Assembly (NCBI GenBank): GCA_051047955.1
Contig: JBPGPT010000040.1
Coordinates: 1-64,000 of the forward strand
DNA length: 64,000 nucleotides
DNA from: Cystobasidiomycetes sp. EMM_F5
Lineage: Eukaryota
Direction: 5' to 3'
Position 1 is the first letter of the stretch, and each line of letters begins with the position of its first letter. The notes under the pieces are model-generated. The model did not search any database and was not told the origin of the DNA. It saw only the letters and a list, made by a program, of their open reading frames with translations. A program made the translations under genes and the position numbers. Below, piece by piece: positions 37,511 through 64,000 of this stretch.

Positions 37511-38302
37511 CTATTGCGGAGGCGCTACAGTTCCGCAATCCTTACAGGTCCGCAGATCTGGGCTGCTCTGCCATTCCTGTAAAGTATGTCAACTCGTGCC
37601 ACCGCTCTTAGCCATGATGTGGGTAACTTACGCGTATCGGGCTGACTAGCTGCTTGCCGAGGTCTGTGCAATGGAAGGCCACTTCACGAATGAGATGCGG
37701 CTCTTTGTGAGCACCTGAGCGGCAATACCACCGTAGTCGATCTGAATATACAGTTATGATGAGCTAGCAGTCGGACCGTGATACTCTTGCAAGCGCACCG
37801 ATACTCTCGCCTGGGCGAACGCGTTCCATGACGATCCCGACAGTGTCAGCAAAGCGGACAGGACAATGCGGCGTGTTTGCTGCAGAGATTTGCGGACCCG
37901 TTAGTGAAGGTGAATAGACGCAAGTGCCGTCAACGGAAGCTCACCAGGTAGCAGGAACATTTCCCCTTCTTCGATGCGATACTCTCTGAATTCGGATTCG
38001 TCAATCATGCGCAGCAGCATTCCGCCCTTGTATTGATAGAACCATTCTTCCGTCTCATTTACATGATAGTCTAGGTATGTCGTCGAATTGACGCATCTCA
38101 GCTCGACAAGTTTAGAACGGAAATCGGATTCAAGATGTGATTTCGGAAAACGAAGCGCACCATTTCGTTCGTTTGGGCCGCCAACCACCATCATGGTGTA
38201 GTCTTTCCCGTTGTATAGACAGAAATTATTTACAGGCGGCTTCAGGCGGTCCTTGTTCTCTTCAAGCCACCGCGGAAAGTTAATGGGCGGAGCGATAGGC
38301 AT
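37511..38302 (-). CDS. BNA1: 3-hydroxyanthranilate 3,4-dioxygenase (kynurenine/NAD pathway)
   Basis: [89 protein letters not shown]. Confidence 0.95.
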
Positions 38303-38653
38303 GTTGGGGGAAGATAGCTTGATGAGACGATGTCGCAGAGATGTATGGCCAGAGGAGTGAGTGAGATGCCAGTAGGAACAGGATAAGGTTGGCTTGAAAG
38401 CAAGCTGGTTTACGTAATCTTATACGTAGGAAAGCCAGTTGTAGGAGTTGCCAAACGCTGGTATCATGGGTTGCGTGCAACCGCAGGCAAGTTACGAAGC
38501 TTCTGCCCTGGTCCACCGGATCGGAGCTTGCTTCGTTCAAGTCGTCGTATCCATACACTTTGCACGCCACCGGTTCCCAAAACGTGATTGTACCCGGCTC
38601 ACTACTTTGGCCAGCAACGCACACCTGCCGACAATCTAGATCTGCGAGTCGAC

Positions 38654-53113: not shown

Positions 53114-55875
53114 ATGAGCTCCTCGTCAGCGCCAAAGAAGCGCGTTGCCGCCTGCGCAGGATGTAACCGTCTCAAGGTCAAGCTGACTGGCAATTGCAGA
53201 TTGATTGCTTCGAAAGCTGATCTGCCTTATCGCTAGATCAAATGCGTTCGGGCTTCCACGACAGATGTCTGCAGACGTTGCGATGCAGTAAGGGAAGAAT
53301 GTGTGACTCCGGCTCGTCATTTTGGTCGGACTTGGGGAAGTAAAAACAAGAAGACGCTGTTGCGACTTGCCAACGATCTAGATGCTTCAGCAGCATCAAC
53401 ATCCGGGCAACATTATCCAGTAGAAATCGAGCATGGGACAATTGAAAGCAGCGCACAACCTTATCAATCATTTCCGACACAACAAGCACAGTGGCCCTTG
53501 CCCAATAATGCTGAATCCTACATACGTGCTCCGGGTCCATCGCGTATCTCACAATATCCGCATGTGGGCGGGACGGGTTTGCAAGATTCGCTTGAACCTC
53601 TACAGATGCTCAACATTACAGTCCCTCAGTCGTCTAGTCGGTGCGTTCATTTATCGCCGGCTCTGAAACCCTGCCCTCTCATTCCATCACCTTAGAAACG
53701 ATTGTGTCAATTATGCATCCATTCTTGAAAGTTTCGACGGATGCGCCCGCCAGCTGGACCCTATTTATGGAGGTAGGCTCTTCATGCTAGTCCTATGCTA
53801 GTCCTATAGGTCAGCGAAGTGACTCTTGCTCTTTGCAGTGGAACTTGTCCGAGAAGGCTTGGAAGCGCTCTTTGCGCCTAATCTAGACGATCAATCTATC
53901 TTGAAGGAGGTGGACCGCGCAGACCTGCCGCTCTCCGATGCGGGTATATCGGAGTATGATCCACTATCCTTGGGCTTGGTCACCTGGCGGGAGGCGGAAC
54001 ACCTCTTTCGAACGTGAGCAAGTCTGGATCAATCACGAATGCAGTCAAGCGCTAACCAGGGGGCATCAAGCTTCTTTGCCGAAGTACAGCCTAGCCTTCG
54101 TATTCTTGATCCGTCATTACATTCCATCACCTTCGTCCGCTCTCGCTCTAGCTTTCTATTTTCAGTCATGTTGGAGGTGTCTCAGACGAGCGTTTCAGAT
54201 GGCACGCAAGAGAAACGCGAGACCCTGCGCAAGCATACGGACTGGCTCATATCTGAAATCCATGGAAAAGGTTGGCTCGTCATTGTCCACTACGCGTATA
54301 AGCTCTGTCCGTTGACACGAGACTCTTTTGCTTGGCAGGGTTCAAGAGTATAGAGATCTGTCAAGCTTTCCAGATCCGCTCTGCCTGGCAGATGCCGTCG
54401 TCACTGAGCGAACAACGGTATGTCGTAATTGTCTGCTGAACGAATTCGCCGTTTAATCTCAATATAGCATCTGGCAACAACTGGGATCTGCCCTGACAAT
54501 GGCAATTGAGCTGAGGTTAGAAGTTGAACACCCTTACTGTGTTTCATGCGACAGCGATTGGAAACAACTGGACAAGATACAGCAAGAACGTCGGCTCCGA
54601 AACGCACAACGGGCTTGGTTATGCCTCTTCAACAGGGATCGAGCGTAAGTGTCTACTCTCACGCTTCCGATAGAGTAACACAATCTAAAAGACGAAGACC
54701 AGTATCGCATCAATATGCGGTAGATCTGCCGTTTTGCCCGAAGGTCCCTTACTTGCGCCAGACTTTCTGCGGAGATGGTTCCGATCGCCTGTAAGTGGAC
54801 CGAGGCTTCCATGTATAGATTCTATTTGTTGAGTGTCGCCCAGTTCGCCATTCTTGATGACGTCACAACCGTCGCGGCCGTCGACTTGCGTCGTATGATA
54901 GTGAGCCTTTTCATTATGCAAAATTATGAACTGCCTGACTAGTGAAGGGGCTTGTCAGCCTAGCACACAAACCATGGTCACAGCCCAGCATGGCAGGGAT
55001 CCTCTGAACTTCGAAGCCATCAAAGCGATTGTCGATTCTGCCATCGCGAAATGGAGGCAAGATTGGCATTCTCAGATGGACGATTCTGCCTTTGCGTATT
55101 TCAACCTGACAGCAACTTTCACTCGCTTCTTCCTGATTGCTACACCATACGATATGGCTATGCGCACTAAGACACTGCCTGAAGAAGCTCGCGATCAGTG
55201 AGTCGGATGTCTGTGTACAATCAACGCCAAGTTGATCGCAATACGCTGGCTCGCAGATGCCTATTGGCGGCACTCGAAGCCTGTCAGGCAGCAGTGCAGC
55301 ATTTGTCGGCCCGAAAACGACAATATGAAGCAGCCGGGCGAAAGCAATTTGCGCCTACATTGAGGTTTGCGCTCGTGAGGGCGATTTTTACCGTGGTTTT
55401 GAAGCTGCTAATGCGTCCAGTAGATTATGTATGCGGCATCAGCATCCATCAAGCTCCTGGAAAGTTGCGAGGGTGCTAGCGCAGGCATGGGACCTGCTGC
55501 CGATCTATACCACCTTGCGATCTTGGCACAGCTCGCTAAGCAGATTCAAGCGATTGGGTCTCCAAACGCTCGTTATGCTTCCGCCGCATACACTTTCGGT
55601 GTTGTCAGTCCCCTCAGTCAAGTCTGTTGACGTCTGCTGAGTACTTGCCATTGCAGCGTCTTATGGCCCTGGCACGTCGTCTAGCTGCTGAGAAAATATC
55701 GAGCTTTGCTATCGAAGCGGCATCCAGTGAAGGCAATGAGTCGGAAGCGGATACTGGATTGGCACAATCTTCCTTCTACGATTATTTCGTCAACGACAAC
55801 TACCTCTCTGACGTACTCGTAGATTCCCTCTGGTGCGGAGCTGAATCGCCGACCCACTTCAAGTTTAATACATAG
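53114..55875 (+). CDS. Zn(II)2Cys6 transcription factor with fungal middle-homology region
   Basis: Spliced C-AG-C-NRLKIK-C-VRASTTDV-C-RR-C-DAVREE-C; DPLSLGLVTWREAEHLF, ILDPSLHSITFVRSRSSFLF, KSIEICQAF. Confidence 0.88.
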
Positions 55876-55902: not shown

Positions 55903-57983
55903 CTAGTGAAACCCATTCGCTTGGACCACTTTTGAGCGTTGTAATGCAGGCAGTCCCGCCTTAGCTAGATCCGCGTTCACTCTGTCCAAATGCTTGAAAA
56001 AGTCTCCCTTGAAGCGCCAGCCTTCTCGATCATCCACTACAAGAAGGCATCTCTCAGCTTTGACGCGACGACCGCCAAGACGACTCACCTTCATACTTGC
56101 CGCTGCGGTACATCGCGTAATCTGTCACCGTACATGTACGACCGATGTGGAATTGGAAGCCTTCGGACGTATGGCTATGTTAGCAGCTCGCAACGCCCCA
56201 AACGTCGCACACTTCGCTCACCCAGCATTCCTTCGCCGATGCGTTCAGCATTTCCTGCATCCTCGATTGCCCGTGTAAATTCCGCTTCGCTCACTGCGTA
56301 TTTACGTACGTCGTGTCAGCTACTTACTCCCTGGTGTGCTGTAGACGACTCACAACCGTGCGGACCGAAAGGCGGCTGATATGTTAATCCGCCCTGACTA
56401 CAATAAGAGTTGCAGTCAGCAGCGCTCCTGGCACTTCTGCTGATTTGCTTACTCCGAATGCGATATTCCGCGGGATGGCCCATAAATCAGTCCACCGATT
56501 TCAGTGAAGAGGTGCCGATGGTAATACTGGCGACCTTCGTGAGCCCGTGCTTAGTGAGCAACAGCAAGAAAATAGTACTCACGGGCGGGCGGAAGGTGTT
56601 TGTAGACACCTGCCACTTCGGAATGAAAGCGTTGAACTCAGCGACAGCTACTCCGGTCATCTTGGACTTGGCCATCAGCACGCAATAGATCGTAGGATCA
56701 ACTTGATCTTTATCGAGTACGCCCATCGTGACGAAACGGTGGATGTCGTATTTATACGGGCCTGATCCGATTCAATTGTCAGCTCGCTTCGCATCATCGT
56801 GAACCTTGTGTATGCTTGCAGTAAGTGCCGTGCCATGCGACGACATCGTAAGGGGTGTGATCTTGGTAGCAGTGGAACATATTTCCGCCCATCCTGGGAA
56901 AGTCTGTCAGGACGAATTATGCCTTTGCTGGACTTCGCGCTCACTTGTAGATGATTTCCCATGTCGATTGATCCAGATCAAATGAGGCGACAGGCGTCTC
57001 AAAGTCTCGAGGTAAAGCGAGACCATTCGTTCCTATTACGCCGAGCTCCGGCAGCTCGTACGAAACGCCATACACTTCCTGAATGTCTAAATACGTCGAG
57101 AGGTAAGCCCACAGGCTCGTGATTCGGTTATTACCCATACTTACATCCGCGAGATGTACCATCTGGTAGCCGGACAGTGAAGCGATGGCCCTTAGGAATG
57201 ACTGCGAACTCGCCGGGTTTGATCATCATGCTGCGTACGCAATTCCCGCACTGTTAGACATTTGGCGAAAGACCAAAAGCAAAGTCGTATAACCTACTGC
57301 CCAAGTTCTGTCTGTATATCCAGCCGACCCTCACACGGAAGAATCATCATTTCACCGTCAATGCTAGAGAAGGATCGTTTGTCCATATCCTTTGAGCAAG
57401 TGTAGATATGAATTGCGAGTCCTTCGTTCTCCGTGGGTTCGCCGCTACCGCAGATGCTCTTGATACCCTCGACGAAGTCAACAGGAGCTGCGGAATCCAC
57501 TTCGAAGGGTAGCCATGTGATCCGAATCGGTGTCGTGTGTACACGCGGATTTGATGGAGAATAGTTTGCTTCCACATCCGGCGTAGGTGCCATTGGCTCG
57601 AGAAGATCGTGAGCAACCGTAGGATAAATACGGTAGAGCCATACGTTTTTCGTCGTAGCCCTGGAGCCGATAAAGCCAGTACCATTGAGGGACTCGGAAA
57701 CTAAATCGTACTTTATCTTCTGCGGCGTATTTTGACCAACGGGCAGCACTCCAGGTCTAGGAGCGAGGAAAGGCTCAGCTTCCGTTGACGAGCATGCTCG
57801 CGCCGTACTCACATGGCCTCAGAAACAAAGCGATTGCCAAATCCTGGCATCTGCGGTGAATGATTACATGAGCTCATGTCCCATGCGCCAAAGATGGTCT
57901 TCAACGAACATAGCTAAGAAGTCATGAGATTAGCTTCGGACAAGCGTACGGAGCTGCTGCATTGCACACCTGTATGGGTCCAT
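55903..57983 (-). CDS. Divergent homogentisate 1,2-dioxygenase-like enzyme (start codon uncertain)
   Basis: [94 protein letters not shown] (His/Glu/His Fe ligands retained). Confidence 0.88.
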
Positions 57984-58320
57984 CTTGGTGGCCGGGCTGG
58001 CATACGGAGCACGCGCGGTGGACACGATTGTATCAGCTTGCTTTCGTAGACAGTGAGTACAGTATGGAGCTCTGCAGAGGATTTCATCTTCTTCTATCAG
58101 CGGCAACTTGCACCGGAAGTTCGGCCTCGAAATCGGTCTACAGATCCACCAGGCACGGCCAAGAGGATGTGCCGGCATACAAGCCGCCGCTGTCGGGCAA
58201 ATTCTTGTTATCGAGCCAGTCACGAGCAGTGCGGAAGATGCCAAAACATCGAGCGTAGACTATGCGTGTGCCGGCTGGGATCCAGGTATACTGTTGCGTT
58301 AGCGGAGGGTGCAGCTTGTC
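57984..58320. promoter_or_regulatory. Bidirectional promoter between the dioxygenase and the hydrolase
   Basis: Head-to-head genes about 340 bp apart; several CGG/CCG triplets and GATA-like sites. Confidence 0.55.
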
Positions 58321-59435
58321 ATGACCGTCAAAGCCTATCAGCCGCTGCACGAACAAGTCCGCAAGACGCTTGATCCGCAATACGTTGCCATCCACGACAG
58401 GTACCTCCAGTACATTCAGCCTGTCAACGAACTGCCATGGACGCCAGCACTTCGCTATCGCTCAATGGGCTTTGCCAGCCAAACGCCTCCAGCTGCCGTC
58501 GGAAGCGTGGTGGACCGGACACTGAAGTCATTTCGAATGCGAGTGTACACTCCAGCGTCTGAGAGGCCTGCGCAAGGCTGGCCAGTTCTTGTCTGGTATC
58601 ACGGAGGCGGCTGGGTGACCGGTGGTATCGAAAGCGACTCTTCATTCTGCAGTCAATTCTGCGCGACTTGCGAATCTGTGGTCGTAGCAGTCGATTATCG
58701 CTTGGCTCCAGAGAACGTCTTTCCGGCTGCTTATGACGATGCAGTTGCAGCACTGCGCTTCGTTTACGAGGATGGTCAAGCAGAACTTGGCATCAACCAA
58801 GAACAAATTGGCATTGGAGGGTTATCTGCGTGAGCCTTTCTCCGTACTACACAAATGGTATCCTATAGATTGCTGAAACATGCTTTGCATGCAGCGGTGG
58901 GGGTTTGGCTGCAAGTGCTGTGTTGGCTGCATCAGACTTGAAGATTGCTCTTCGATTCCAACTGCTCATTGTTCCAGTTCTGGACAATACCGCAACCAGC
59001 TCGCCGGGCGGACGGTGGTCGAGCAAACCGTTCGCACCGTATCTTGGTGCGGAGCGTATGCTATGGTTCCGTCAGCAGTATCTGCCTCGGCAGGCAGACT
59101 GGTCTGACTGGAGATGCAGCCCTGCTCTGGCAGACGAGGATCGATTGCGCCGTCTTTCCACAATACCTACCTGGATAGCTGTAGCAGATCACGACATCCT
59201 AGCAGAAGAGGCGACGATCTATGCAGAGGTATTACGATCAGCTGGCGTGAAGGTGCATTTGGAGACTGTACGTGGAGCTACCCACTCCATCTTGTTGCTC
59301 GACGCGTGAGTTTTAGCTGGTCTGTCTAGCTACATGAGAAGGCACTAAAATTAGGCTGCATCCTAAAGAGTGATAGATTCAGCGCGACGATTAAGGCTTG
59401 ATGCCATCTTCTGGGCTAAAAGCCTATTGTTGTAA
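58321..59435 (+). CDS. HSL-family alpha/beta hydrolase (abhydrolase_3)
   Basis: VWYHGGGWVTG, VDYRLAPENVFPAAYDD, GGLSA-GG nucleophile, DILAEE, GATH. Confidence 0.9.
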
Positions 59436-61667: not shown

Positions 61668-62473
61668 ATGGCGACAAATGGACATGTCCACAAGATGGGC
61701 TGGGGCACCAATGTGGCCTTACTCATGGTAGATGTCTGTACTGCATGTCAGTTTGCTGATATCAACATACATATGTATGCGCGATGAAGACTAACCTGCT
61801 CTTCTCGACCAGACTGGGCTGATGGCTCGCCGAACGACTTAAGAGCCAATGCGGAAGCAGTCAAGGTTCCTGATGTGATGCGTCGACTTCTATCAGCAGC
61901 AAGGAAAGGCCGTGTGCCGGTCATTTGGACGGCTGTAAAATTTACTCATCCGGACATGTTGGACGCTGGCATCTTCTACTTGAAACATCCGCACTTGTCC
62001 ATATGGCAAGCCGGCGACAAGCGTGGGTACGACCAATGGATGCCAGGACTAGAGCCAGAGCCGGAGGATCTCGTCATCTACAAGCAATATCCCAGTCCAT
62101 TCTTCGGCACCACTCTTGCTACGTCGTTGCGACACATGGGTGTGGATACGTTAGTGCTCTGTGGAGTTTCGACGAGCGGTTGTGTGCGAGCTGCGGTGGG
62201 GCACGAACAGATAACATCGAAGACAATACTGAAGCTGTCGCTCATTCTTTTAGACATTGGATGCAATGTGCCATGGCTTCAGACCAATGGTGAGCAGGGT
62301 TGGAGCAGAGTCCCAGGCTGAGCTGATAGAACGGCCAGGTTTGCCGACCAGCATGCGGTGACAAGTCTCAGGAGGTTCAGGAAGCGAATCTGTACGATAT
62401 GAACCGTAAATATTGTGATGTGATAACAGAGCTCGACGCAATCGAGCATCTGCAGAAACCTTGGAGCCGATGA
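61668..62473 (+). CDS. Isochorismatase-family cysteine amidohydrolase (NicF / N-carbamoylsarcosine amidase-like)
   Basis: GWGTNVALLMVD (catalytic Asp), KQYPSPFFGT (Lys), CGVSTSGCVRA (Cys), LDAMCHGFRP, ACGDKSQEVQEANLYDMNRKYCDV. Confidence 0.9.
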
Positions 62474-62571: not shown

Positions 62572-64000
62572 TTACAACGCCTGCTCCGCTATTGGCATCG
62601 CCCTTCTCCTCCTTCGAGCTCGAAATCGCGGGCCAAACGTCACCTCGATGTACCACAACGGCGCGCACACTACAGCGATCAATGCCATGGTCGTGTACAT
62701 CCAGCCTGGGCCCAGTGCCTGGAGCAGCGGATCGACTATGGCAGTACCCCCAGCTCCGAGCAAACAGCGGGAGAGATTCATTGATGCAATGGCCGATGCT
62801 GAGGCTTTTGGGAAGAGGTCGACCCTGTCACATGGACGTTAGGAGATCAAATCCGCGAAAACAGCGTTTCTTGCTCACAAAAGCGTGGAGTGACTGTTCG
62901 TTATCGTTGTGCTCGTGATACCTACGATAAATTGGAGAATGAGCGGGACTGCCAGATGAGCTCTGCACTGTACCGCCCATCCATATCCGATGACTGAACC
63001 AGCAAGTAAAACGAAATAGTACGCTATGAACGGCCGTCAGCAGTGCGCTATACTCTGGCATTTACGATCGCAGCGATATTCTCACGTATAGTGCGCAGTC
63101 TTGCATGCTCTATTGGGAAGTCGTCGCCGTCTGTGCGTGCGACTTGCATATCTTTATGCTGCTTCCTGAACTTCTCGACGGTCAAGCGGTAGTCTCGGTC
63201 TAGCCTACGAGTGTTGAGCAGAGCCGCTGCAATGCAGCCGGCACCGAAAGCGAGGAAACACAGGCCGATCTCGCTTTCGTTCAATCCATAAGGTGCCTGT
63301 AATACAACGGCAACCGAAGTAATGACACTGTAGAAAAGTGTATCTATAAGGACATGCAATCATCAGACCGCATAATCTTGACATTGAGATAATTTACTGA
63401 CAGCATATAGCGTTGAAACCGAGAATGAGACAAACATCGGGTTGCCCGAAGTTTTTGACTGAAGCAAGCCAGTCAATATCCTTCCAGCTTTTCGCCGTTG
63501 GACGTTGTTCCTGTATTTGTTCGACTTTACTCGAAGTTGTGTTTCCGTCTGAGCGTTGCCTGAGCCAGTATAGCAGCGACGTGTTGACGGGCTTAGGAGG
63601 AATACTTCCGTTGCCAACGAGAGAGCGCAGAGTCTGTGACAGATGTCAACGAAAATTCTGGCATCCAAAGGCGTCATTACCTCTGGAAGAACGGCTGCCA
63701 TGATAAGGAAGACCACACCAGAAAAAGCTGCCAGAAATGCAAAGATTCTGCATGGGGCGTAAATCAGGACGGAGCGCAAAGAGACTGCCGTCCAGGCTCA
63801 GCTTACGATTGCCAGCCAAAAGCTTGCGTCATGAGCCCGCCGATTACCGGTCTGCAGAAAAGATGTCAGCCTGGAGACTGAAGAAGAAGCCAAAGAGAGT
63901 CAACTGACCCGATGGTCGGACCGAGCTGAGGTCCCAACTGGTATATTCCCATAAATCCGCCTCGTTCTGATCTATCAGCAATATCCCCGATGAATCCGCC
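62572..64000 (-). CDS. MFS transporter, DHA1/QDR-like; 5' part lies outside the window
   Basis: GFIGDIADRSERG, GPTIG-PVIGGL, WQSLFAPS...LPE-TLR, YGLNESEIGLCFL, DFPIEHARLR, NLSRCLLGAGG. Confidence 0.85.

Follow-up and report, generated by a model that had tools for sequence, protein, structure and literature searches.

We found that the window, the 64,000-nucleotide stretch of DNA analyzed here, carries a homogentisate 1,2-dioxygenase (HGD) family gene whose product is predicted to be an active Fe(II)-dependent ring-cleaving dioxygenase with the HGD fold, acting on another para-diol (hydroquinone-type) ring and not on homogentisate. We put the probability of this reading at about 0.6. The residues that bind iron are kept and those that recognize homogentisate are swapped, which points to a different ring as the substrate. 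HGD-family enzymes with non-homogentisate substrates are already published, and the central substitution, Gln at position 292, is not new to this gene. What is new here is the company that the dioxygenase gene keeps, namely a cytochrome P450, an HSL-type esterase, a cysteine amidohydrolase, an MFS-like gene and a Zn2Cys6 regulator.

Gene model and active-site residues

From the minus-strand sequence of the window, we derived a spliced model of the HGD-like gene in 11 exons (Table 1). The gene is intact, with a frame open over all 11 exons and 10 well-formed introns of 51-67 nt each; nine of the predicted introns are GT-AG and intron 5 is GC-AG. Another possible donor (GT) for intron 5 would add five residues, and we kept the GC donor because in homologues a single residue separates WHG.Y from PYKY. 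The N-terminus is uncertain, with a possible upstream mini-exon (ATG-GAC-CCA-TAC-AG, 57983-57970, donor GT at 57969) joining at 57872. Both HgmA_N (PF20510) and HgmA_C (PF04209) exceeded their gathering scores, placing the protein in the HGD superfamily. Exon 2 is 77% identical to P0018, a 172-aa fragment from a related organism, and both ORFs end at the same point; as a query in a metagenome scan, the same exon returned no relative. Exon 11 encodes a C-terminal extension that fungal HGD-like clades share and canonical HGDs lack. We found no second HGD-like locus in the window, where tblastn with 7 canonical-pattern sequences matched only 56479-57850.

Table 1. Positions of the HGD-like gene, its exons and the neighboring genes in the window.
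Feature	Position	Strand	Description
Putative Zn2Cys6 transcription factor	53114..55875	+	Convergent with dioxygenase gene; CX2CX6CX8CX2CX6C across a 59-nt GT-AG intron
HGD-like gene	55903..57877	-	Spliced model; 1401-nt CDS, 466 aa
Exon 11	55903..56036	-	C-terminal extension; stop TAG 55905-03
Exon 10	56089..56160	-	His at human Glu401 position, 56149-47
Exon 9	56222..56293	-	Spliced model
Exon 8	56354..56397	-	Gln at His365 position 56378-76; His371 equivalent 56360-58
Exon 7	56453..56526	-	His335 equivalent 56520-18; Arg336; Asn337 to His 56514-12; Glu341 equivalent 56502-00; Ser at Tyr350 position 56475-73
Exon 6	56583..56761	-	Gln at human His292 position, codon 56705-56703; Pfam HgmA_C E 7.9e-14, 52.2 bits
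Exon 5	56820..56893	-	GC donor at 56819; with the GT donor after 56805, KHTQG would be inserted
Exon 4	56945..57086	-	Pfam HgmA_N E 8.4e-13, 48.7 bits
Exon 3	57145..57230	-	Spliced model
Exon 2	57298..57756	-	N-terminal domain; Pfam HgmA_N E 4.8e-43, 147.9 bits
Exon 1	57813..57877	-	ATG 57877-75; encodes 21 residues; GFGN.F.SEA motif conserved in alignments
Alpha/beta-hydrolase fold-3 (HSL-type) esterase	58303..59306	+	Two ORF pieces, divergent from dioxygenase; Pfam Abhydrolase_3 1.2e-26, 1.8e-23
Cytochrome P450	59717..61463	-	Several exons; Pfam p450 on three ORF pieces
Isochorismatase-family cysteine hydrolase	61788..62318	+	Pfam Isochorismatase 1.6e-17; motifs K..F..T, G.....C
MFS-like transporter pieces	62572..63797	-	Named after homologues in L001 and L005 that match MFS_1

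Residues are numbered as in human HGD (the 1ey2 chain index is the human number plus 26). The initial annotation had singled out three peptides within 56357..56726 as counterparts of HGD active-site stretches. We found all three in the model (16 residues in exon 6, 20 in exon 7 and 13 in exon 8), the coordinates are about right, and the canonical sequences that it cited agree with the human HGD chain. The change of His292 to Gln can be read directly from phmmer alignments of exon 6 with the PDB HGDs 1ey2 and 3zds (E values 1.8e-09 and 4.4e-09). The equivalents of His335, Glu341, Tyr350, His365 and His371 were located using multiple alignments with fungal homologues that had in turn been aligned to human 1ey2 and P. 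putida 3zds. As lone queries against the PDB, the two short exons gave chance matches or nothing, so the positions that they encode rest on the family alignment. In that alignment, the 2-His-1-carboxylate iron triad is kept (H338, E344 and H373 in the model for human His335, Glu341 and His371), Tyr350 is Ser and His365 is Gln; of these assignments that of Tyr350 is the least certain, since the lid has one residue fewer than that of human HGD. Aligned with human and Pseudomonas HGD, the second-sphere residues His292 and His365 are not conserved, as had been predicted from the letters alone.

None of the signature residues of HGD proper (EC 1.13.11.5), His292, His365 and, in its less certain column, lid Tyr350, is present. 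In the available text of two sources (bioRxiv 10.64898/2026.06.02.729205, PMC4019311), His292 hydrogen-bonds the distal hydroxyl, and His365, in a hydrogen bond with Glu341, acts as a proton shuttle. According to the accessible part of PMC11634970, the lid Tyr is the residue that binds the carboxylate of homogentisate; in PcMHQD2 it has become Phe, a change that accompanies loss of homogentisate turnover. Two further substitutions, absent from the initial annotation, are Glu401 to His, seen in the alignment, and Asn337 to His, at a position that is Asn in 161 of the 162 other family sequences. Our literature search found nothing relevant on the role of Glu401. Across the 83 near-invariant columns (at least 95% conserved in the 162 other family members), the protein keeps 78, the five misses being F>Y, T>S, L>M, N337>H and one N-terminal gap.

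A fungal clade with Gln292

The substitution pattern described in the initial annotation is real, yet our phylogeny of fungal relatives indicates that it is not peculiar to this gene. Among 163 sequences, the residues at positions 292 and 401 were Q,H in 88, H,E in 63, Q,Q in 10 and another pair in 2. We define the Gln292-type clade by Gln292, His or Gln at 401 and a C-terminal extension of the form F..H...VN.DL..AGLP, and the HGD-like protein carries all three features in the alignment. Judged from these sequences, Gln292 with His/Gln401 is the fixed state of a large fungal clade and not a one-off. The HGD-like protein grouped with 87 other Q-type sequences in FastTree (SH-like support 0.70) and with all Q-type sequences in IQ-TREE (UFBoot 99). 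Its branch is long (0.77-0.88 substitutions per site) and its placement inside the clade is unstable, being basal in two trees and with the Gln365 subclade in another (aLRT 90.6). By name, 68 of 69 ascomycete matches have Gln292, and 33 of 35 basidiomycete matches have His292 with Glu401. The association between positions 292 and 401 amounts to one clade-level event, and we make no case for coevolution from it. Wherever a named relative bears a functional name, that name is homogentisate 1,2-dioxygenase. One metagenomic relative, L004, is broken: a stop interrupts its frame, and Trp takes the place of His371.

Within its own clade the HGD-like protein is divergent, keeping 122 of 140 clade-conserved columns, the second-lowest count of 98 sequences (median of the others 139, minimum 114). 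Asn337>His, Tyr350>Ser and PHGE>PHGL are departures near the metal site, and these could mean relaxed constraint instead of new function. We nevertheless consider it highly unlikely that the gene is a decaying or catalytically dead copy: its long branch, its 18 departures, the replacement of a near-universal Asn337 and the existence of a broken relative would fit such decay, but the frame is open across 11 exons and 10 well-formed introns, the protein retains its triad and 78 of 83 family-invariant columns, and exon 2 is 77% conserved in another organism with its ORF ending at the same point.

Neighboring genes and a candidate pathway

Next to the dioxygenase gene we identified five further genes (Table 1). 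The Zn2Cys6 candidate gave no Pfam match on its separate ORF pieces, and neither did the MFS-like pieces in the window itself. The HSL-type esterase had carboxylesterases and lipases as its best PDB matches and a partial COesterase match (E value 9.6e-08). The cysteine hydrolase gene likely has a further exon upstream; its best PDB matches were N-carbamoylsarcosine amidohydrolase (E value 5e-13) and 3ot4/3uao (E value 4.8e-12), with low scores that are informative at the family level only. The window end at 64000 falls inside the cluster.

Parts of this gene set recur on three independent metagenomic fungal contigs, L001, L003 and L005. P450 homologues with 36-55% identity stand beside Gln292-type genes on all three; where the flanks allow, amidohydrolase homologues (57% identity in L001, 50% in L005) and an MFS-like gene are seen as well. 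L005 also has an esterase homologue (52% and 45% identity), and the HSL-type esterase occurs twice, in the window and in L005. Among 68 His292-type loci, by comparison, we found no comparable neighbor match, and the best P450 matches there had 26-34% identity. The set is not universal, however, as two further distinct Gln292-type contexts (L006/L008 and L035/L037) have housekeeping neighbors. Individual contigs add genes of their own, with a purine/cytosine-type permease in L001 and a tannase/feruloyl esterase in L005, and the P450 of L003 matched only generic animal and plant P450s in the PDB. Our literature search for a published cluster of HGD, isochorismatase and P450 found nothing relevant.

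A possible route for a non-homogentisate para-diol would run as follows. The P450 would make the diol by ring hydroxylation or unmask it; the dioxygenase would bind it through a ring oxygen at Fe and cut the ring beside that oxygen, as HGD and MhdA do. Gln295, the residue of the model at the His292 position, could still hydrogen-bond the distal hydroxyl and would be unable to act as a base, and loss of the lid Tyr would remove the contact with the acetate carboxylate of homogentisate. Next, the two hydrolases might split an ester or amide function of the open-chain product, and with the Zn2Cys6 factor and the transporter the set would be an inducible unit for catabolism or detoxification.

The hydrolases invite a narrower proposal, which we regard as unlikely, that the substrate is a nitrogen-containing para-diol ring (2,5-dihydroxypyridine-like or aminohydroquinone-like). 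Fission would give an N-formyl or amide product to be deformylated by the alpha/beta hydrolase and deamidated by the cysteine amidohydrolase, a fungal analogue of NicX-NicD-NicF built on the HGD fold. The bacterial NicX-NicD-NicF lower nicotinate pathway follows the same logic, para-diol cleavage and then an alpha/beta hydrolase and a cysteine amidohydrolase, and serves as an analogy only; to our knowledge NicX is not an HGD-fold enzyme, nor does the fungal nicotinate route, as far as we know, use an HGD-type enzyme. After the P450, the isochorismatase-family gene is the most conserved partner (window, L001 and L005), its Cys motif is present, and its best-matching relatives of solved structure are N-carbamoylsarcosine amidohydrolase and 3ot4/3uao. 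The last of these is NicF, a maleamate amidohydrolase, in an enzyme group that acts on amides from opened N-heterocycles (PMC5806882, in the portion available). The purine/cytosine-type permease of L001 would also suit a nitrogen ring, and pyridinediols had been put forward in the initial annotation. Set against this, the match of the window amidohydrolase to NicF is low-scoring and holds at the family level only, the best matches of the esterase are ordinary carboxylesterases, the tannase/feruloyl esterase in L005 points to plant phenolics, and the sole characterized relatives act on methoxyhydroquinones. The fungal nicotinate route, moreover, runs through the hydroxylase HnxS in the part of the FAMeDB text available.

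We would offer only as a long shot a wider version, in which an ancient and as yet undescribed fungal cluster is built around the Gln292/His401 enzymes (P450, dioxygenase, NicF/CSHase-like cysteine amidohydrolase, transporter, with or without the HSL-type esterase and Zn2Cys6 factor). Such a cluster might break down a para-diol aromatic that carries nitrogen or an ester, such as a ring of the hydroxypyridone/2,5-dihydroxypyridine type, with His401 taking over the acid-base role of the lost His292 and His365.

P450s, hydrolases, MFS transporters and Zn2Cys6 factors are the usual accessories of fungal biosynthetic clusters, and all are found at this locus, the last as a pathway-type regulator. 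The dioxygenase might therefore be a tailoring enzyme that opens the ring of a hydroquinone intermediate in secondary metabolism and is not catabolic, which we judge quite improbable. We saw no PKS, NRPS, terpene synthase or prenyltransferase either in the Pfam-scanned ORFs of the window, which ends inside the cluster, or in L001, L003 and L005; the tannase/feruloyl esterase of L005 and the catabolic nature of the characterized relatives also speak against such a role.

Known relatives and implications for the HGD family

By sequence, canonical HGDs (human 1EY2/1EYB; P. putida 3ZDS/4AQ2/4AQ6) and the window protein share the two-domain HgmA fold, the Fe triad and the core motifs AWHG, FRPPYYHR and PHG. 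The window protein differs in its replaced His292, Tyr350, His365, Asn337 and Glu401 and in its added C-terminal extension, and it is 37-44% identical to canonical-pattern sequences. PDB 9PZ4, a fungal non-canonical structure titled "homogentisate 1,2-dioxygenase," resembles it in having Gln at the His365 position and lacking Tyr350, but keeps His292 and Glu401; its chain matches P0008 of Gelatoporia subvermispora over the stretches compared, in a Polyporales group outside the Gln292 clade. Our literature search found no paper on 9PZ4.

In the fungal literature available, only six HGD-family members have a stated function or evidence (FAMeDB supplement). MhdA (A. niger NRRL3_10111) is annotated as HGD, cleaves methoxyhydroquinone and has its gene next to that of an esterase acting on the ring-fission product (available text of PMC8336404; FAMeDB supplement). 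Likened by description, MhdA and the window gene have in common the HGD family, the HGD label and an esterase neighbor, MhdA being an ascomycete enzyme for a hydroquinone without the acetate side chain. The partner of MhdA, OmeA, is a type-B carboxylesterase (IPR002018), whereas the window esterase belongs to Abhydrolase_3, a difference of family that led us to reject orthology between the two (FAMeDB supplement). The window gene has both a P450 and an amidohydrolase partner, neither of which is reported for MhdA in the accessible text of PMC8336404. MhdA orthologues occur in Hypocreales, Venturia and Pleosporales, and the sampled proteomes of Xylariales and of three Colletotrichum have none (FAMeDB supplement); this absence suggests that at most one Gln292 subclade is MhdA-like. 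From taxon overlap (FAMeDB supplement, Fig. S4 text), we infer that MhdA may lie inside the Gln292 clade. The 120 best matches of two Q-type queries included no A. niger or A. nidulans names, and among the matches listed for an Aspergillus Q-type query none was named A. niger, A. nidulans, A. fumigatus or A. oryzae; a close kinship of MhdA with the Trp350 subclade was accordingly abandoned as a hypothesis.

In Phanerochaete chrysosporium, the HGD-like PcMHQD1 and PcMHQD2 (PcHGD1/2) prefer methoxyhydroquinone, and PcMHQD2, like the window protein, has a changed lid Tyr, in its case with homogentisate activity lost (PMC11634970, available part). These are basidiomycete enzymes, and basidiomycete-named relatives mostly keep His292 and Glu401, unlike the window protein. 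PcMHQD1, although non-canonical, still turns over some homogentisate in the same account, and the fold and metal site of the window protein are those of HGD. It is nonetheless very unlikely, in our view, that this is an ordinary homogentisate dioxygenase of tyrosine/phenylalanine breakdown working despite its substitutions: it has lost His292, Tyr350 and His365, its clade stands apart from the canonical-pattern sequences (at 36-49% identity), and the usual tyrosine-degradation partners are missing among the window ORFs scanned with Pfam. Most fungi studied, moreover, have 2-3 HGD-family genes, one of them in the HmgA clade (PMC8336404, in the text available).

The initial annotation had proposed an active dioxygenase with another substrate that automated pipelines would mislabel as hmgA. 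The intact gene, the large clade, the published non-homogentisate relatives and the HGD labels all favor this, with activity and substrate standing as predictions. The published HGD-family methoxyhydroquinone cleavers are likewise annotated as HGD and receive KEGG K00451 (available text of PMC8336404 and PMC11634970; FAMeDB supplement). Automatic naming of all HGD-family members as homogentisate 1,2-dioxygenase/K00451 inflates the apparent capacity for tyrosine degradation, and the blanket label hides other fungal ring-cleavage routes. As a fast-evolving member of the Gln292 clade, the window gene alone carries moderate weight. The signature of Gln292 with His/Gln401, without His365, would aid annotation by separating a whole ascomycete clade from true HGD, and the recurring set of neighbors would give concrete candidates for a further fungal pathway of aromatic or heteroaromatic catabolism.

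Gene model and surroundings in the window

The HGD-like gene lies on the minus strand and has several exons; we built an 11-exon model for it from the reverse-complement sequence using tblastn guides and a reading of the splice sites. The stop-free translation of this model is 466 aa long, and individual exons match Pfam HgmA_N and HgmA_C. The ten introns measure 51-67 nt; nine begin with GT, and intron 5 (56762-56819, minus) begins with GC. This GC donor (GCAAGC) is required for the family spacing WHG.Y-x-PYKY: the nearest GT, 15 nt further, would shorten the intron to 43 nt and insert five residues (KHTQG) at a place where homologues have exactly one residue. The start of the gene is uncertain. 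Because a candidate upstream mini-exon, ATG GAC CCA TAC AG (57970-57983, minus; followed by GTGTGC), would supply the family-conserved N-terminal "DPY" and can join in frame at 57872 across an intron of 97 nt, the start as annotated may be wrong.

Most of the window carries housekeeping genes, and the part from 53 kb to the window end holds a different kind of set (see table). The best solved relatives of its isochorismatase-family hydrolase are N-carbamoylsarcosine amidohydrolase and 3ot4/3uao, of which 3uao is NicF, a maleamate amidohydrolase (PMC5806882). A second ring-cleaver, a 3-hydroxyanthranilate 3,4-dioxygenase, lies amid the housekeeping genes, about 18 kb from the HGD-like gene.

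Features of the window and of metagenomic loci (L numbers) carrying HGD-like genes; percentages refer to matches with window-derived neighbor queries
Feature	Position	Strand	Remarks
HGD-like exon 1	57877-57813	minus
HGD-like exon 2	57756-57298	minus
HGD-like exon 3	57230-57145	minus
HGD-like exon 4	57086-56945	minus
HGD-like exon 5	56893-56820	minus
HGD-like exon 6	56761-56583	minus
HGD-like exon 7	56526-56453	minus
HGD-like exon 8	56397-56354	minus
HGD-like exon 9	56293-56222	minus
HGD-like exon 10	56160-56089	minus
HGD-like exon 11	56036-55903	minus
Zn2Cys6 factor	within 53 kb-window end		CX2CX6CX8CX2CX6C completed across 59-nt intron
Abhydrolase_3 esterase			within 53 kb-window end; divergent from dioxygenase gene
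P450	within 53 kb-window end
Isochorismatase-family hydrolase	within 53 kb-window end		catalytic-Cys motif present
MFS-like ORFs	within 53 kb-window end
3-hydroxyanthranilate 3,4-dioxygenase ORF	37904-38419	minus	Pfam 3-HAO, E 1.4e-28
L001 neighbors			P450 41-54%, amidohydrolase 57%, MFS-like gene
L001 P450 reductase	L001:2708-4648	plus	Flavodoxin_1 + FAD_binding_1 + NAD_binding_1; adjoins cluster P450
L001 purine/cytosine-type permease	L001:10438-11223	minus	after HGD-like gene
L003 neighbors			P450 39-55%
L003 P450	L003:482-2092	minus	single uninterrupted ORF, 537 codons
L003 HGD-like gene	L003:2789-4375	plus	single uninterrupted ORF, 529 codons
L004 Gln292-type copy	L004:1019-1442		in-frame stop in WHG..PYKY motif, frame change, Trp at His371 position; probably a pseudogene
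L005 neighbors			P450 36-52%, esterase 52%/45%, amidohydrolase 50%, MFS-like gene
L005 tannase/feruloyl esterase	L005:14628-15653	minus	just beyond HGD-like gene
L005 Fungal_trans transcription factor	L005:11021-13213	plus	just beyond HGD-like gene

Active-site residues and the Gln292 clade

The initial annotation had read Gln in place of His292. When exon 6 was compared with all PDB chains using phmmer, Gln stood opposite His in all three matches, namely the HGDs of P. putida (3zds), human (1ey2), and a fungus (9pz4). Since the 1ey2 chain index equals human numbering plus 26, the position is indeed that of His292. Exons 7 and 8 are too short to be searched alone, so their residues were read from an alignment of the model with fungal relatives recovered using exon 2, one of which (P0003) was tied by HMMER alignment to human and bacterial HGD chains. 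In these family alignments the Fe ligands His335, Glu341, and His371 are kept, as is Arg336; His365 is Gln; and Tyr350 is Ser, a column less secure than all the others since the lid of the window protein is shorter by one residue. These alignments confirm the ligands and losses that had been proposed from the sequence, and the canonical HGD strings given there match the human chain in the PDB comparison. Two further replacements had escaped that reading: Asn337 to His (Asn in 161 of 162 other sequences) and Glu401 to His. The window protein keeps 78 of 83 family-wide near-invariant columns. Of the 140 columns that the Gln-type clade conserves, it retains only 122, which ranks second from the bottom among 98 sequences. 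The gene is intact and of the HGD fold; its product has every ligand of the Fe site and has lost the carboxylate-binding Tyr. Roles of His292 and His365 are treated in passages of a 2026 preprint (bioRxiv 10.64898/2026.06.02.729205) and a 2013 review (PMC4019311).

In an exhaustive search without a profile, exon 2 matched a single close relative, the 172-aa fragment P0018 (77% identity); all full-length representatives had at most 48% identity. Word-indexed searches with two relatives, from which the best 120 of thousands of matches each were taken, extended the sample. In the 163 aligned sequences whose triad is intact, positions 292 and 401 held Gln and His in 88, His and Glu in 63, Gln and Gln in 10, and another pair in 2; none paired Gln292 with Glu401 or His292 with His401. 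The change at 292/401 maps to one clade and therefore reflects a single historical event, not repeated covariation. Gln292 occurred in 68 of 69 ascomycete-named sequences (Leu in one) and His292 in 33 of 35 basidiomycete-named ones among the best matches listed, a sample biased because it consists of best matches to Gln-type queries and the window. The loss of two second-sphere histidines is fixed across the clade, whose subclades carry Trp/Glu, Tyr/Glu, or Tyr/Gln at 350/365.

FastTree placed the window protein outside the 87 other Gln-type sequences, as the sister of them all (0.70). In an IQ-TREE run with 45 taxa, the group that unites the window protein with all Gln-type sequences had UFBoot 99 and the remaining Gln-type sequences without it had 88, while a fast IQ-TREE run with 79 taxa grouped it with the Gln365 subclade (Coleophoma, Colletotrichum, Xylariales; aLRT 90.6). 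The window protein has a long branch (0.77-0.88). As the trees agree on the clade and differ within it, these sequences argue solidly for membership in the Gln292 clade and not solidly for any one place inside it.

Recurrence of the neighbor set

For a second scan of the metagenome, an alignment of Gln-type proteins served as query; it returned 80 loci, 12 of which carry Gln292. Strong matches to the window-derived neighbor queries occurred solely in L001, L003, and L005; no comparable match was found in any of 68 His292-type loci, where the best P450 matches were 26-34%. L001 and L003 are of the Tyr350/Glu365 type and L005 is of the Trp350/Glu365 type, so the association spans subclades. Five other Gln-type loci (L002, L004, L020, L052, L078) each measure 1.6 to 3 kb from end to end, and four form two pairs of overlapping or syntenic contigs (L006/L008, L035/L037) in which a GRIP-domain gene and a WD40 gene flank the HGD-like gene. 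Counting the window, four of the six distinct contexts whose flanks could be used have a P450 beside the dioxygenase; its linkage to a P450 and to hydrolases recurs. A literature search in a limited library returned nothing relevant on a published cluster of this kind.

RTA1-like genes lie at the edge of L001 and of L005. In L003 the HGD-like gene is uninterrupted, in contrast to the intron-rich window gene, and a 999-codon HET-domain ORF comes next.

Relation to MhdA and possible function

A. niger NRRL3_10111 (mhdA), annotated as HGD, was established by deletion and recombinant-enzyme assay as a methoxyhydroquinone 1,2-dioxygenase; the esterase gene omeA adjoins it and works later in the pathway, and the majority of the fungi examined carry two or three genes of the HGD family, spread over several clades (Lubbers et al. 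2021, PMC8336404). According to a white-rot review, methoxyhydroquinone is preferred by P. chrysosporium PcMHQD1/2, and PcMHQD2, in which Phe replaces the lid Tyr responsible for binding the homogentisate carboxylate, does not convert homogentisate (PMC11634970; see also PMC12420386). In the FAMeDB supplement the HGD family has six entries, and MhdA is shown there to receive K00451 from KEGG tools. The initial annotation's reading, an active dioxygenase with another substrate, is reasonable; its general idea is already established for the HGD family, and the MhdA and PcMHQD work largely anticipates it. The window gene is a divergent member of this known HGD-like group.

The best 120 matches to a Talaromyces or an Aspergillus Gln-type query include nothing named A. 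niger, A. nidulans, A. fumigatus, or A. oryzae. The published MhdA clade includes F. graminearum and C. lunatus members (PMC8336404); FAMeDB lists orthologues of MhdA for Ophiocordyceps, Purpureocillium, Venturia, and three Pleosporales, and none in the three Colletotrichum or the Xylariales proteomes sampled. By taxon, the fungi with an orthologue match the Tyr350/Glu365 subclade (Ilyonectria, Cordyceps, Venturia, Clohesyomyces) and not the Gln365 or Trp350 subclades. From this indirect taxon overlap we infer that MhdA probably belongs to the Gln292-type enzymes, within a single subclade.

PDB 9PZ4 (a 2025-26 entry, "homogentisate 1,2-dioxygenase", 496 aa) matches the Gelatoporia subvermispora protein P0008 over the stretches compared. 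Its residues opposite His365 and Tyr350 are Gln and Gly, so there is a solved structure for one non-canonical member from a fungus; our literature search found no paper on it.

We propose that the P450 would supply a para-diol lacking the acetate side chain, which the enzyme would cleave, with Gln295 (human position 292) holding the distal hydroxyl but not serving as a base. His403 (human position 401) may stand in for a lost base, and the hydrolases would split an ester or amide of the product. The substituent might be O-methyl, the MhdA case, or might contain nitrogen, a possibility at which the NicF-like partner hints. Of these results, the recurring neighbor set and the 292/401 signature deserve follow-up.
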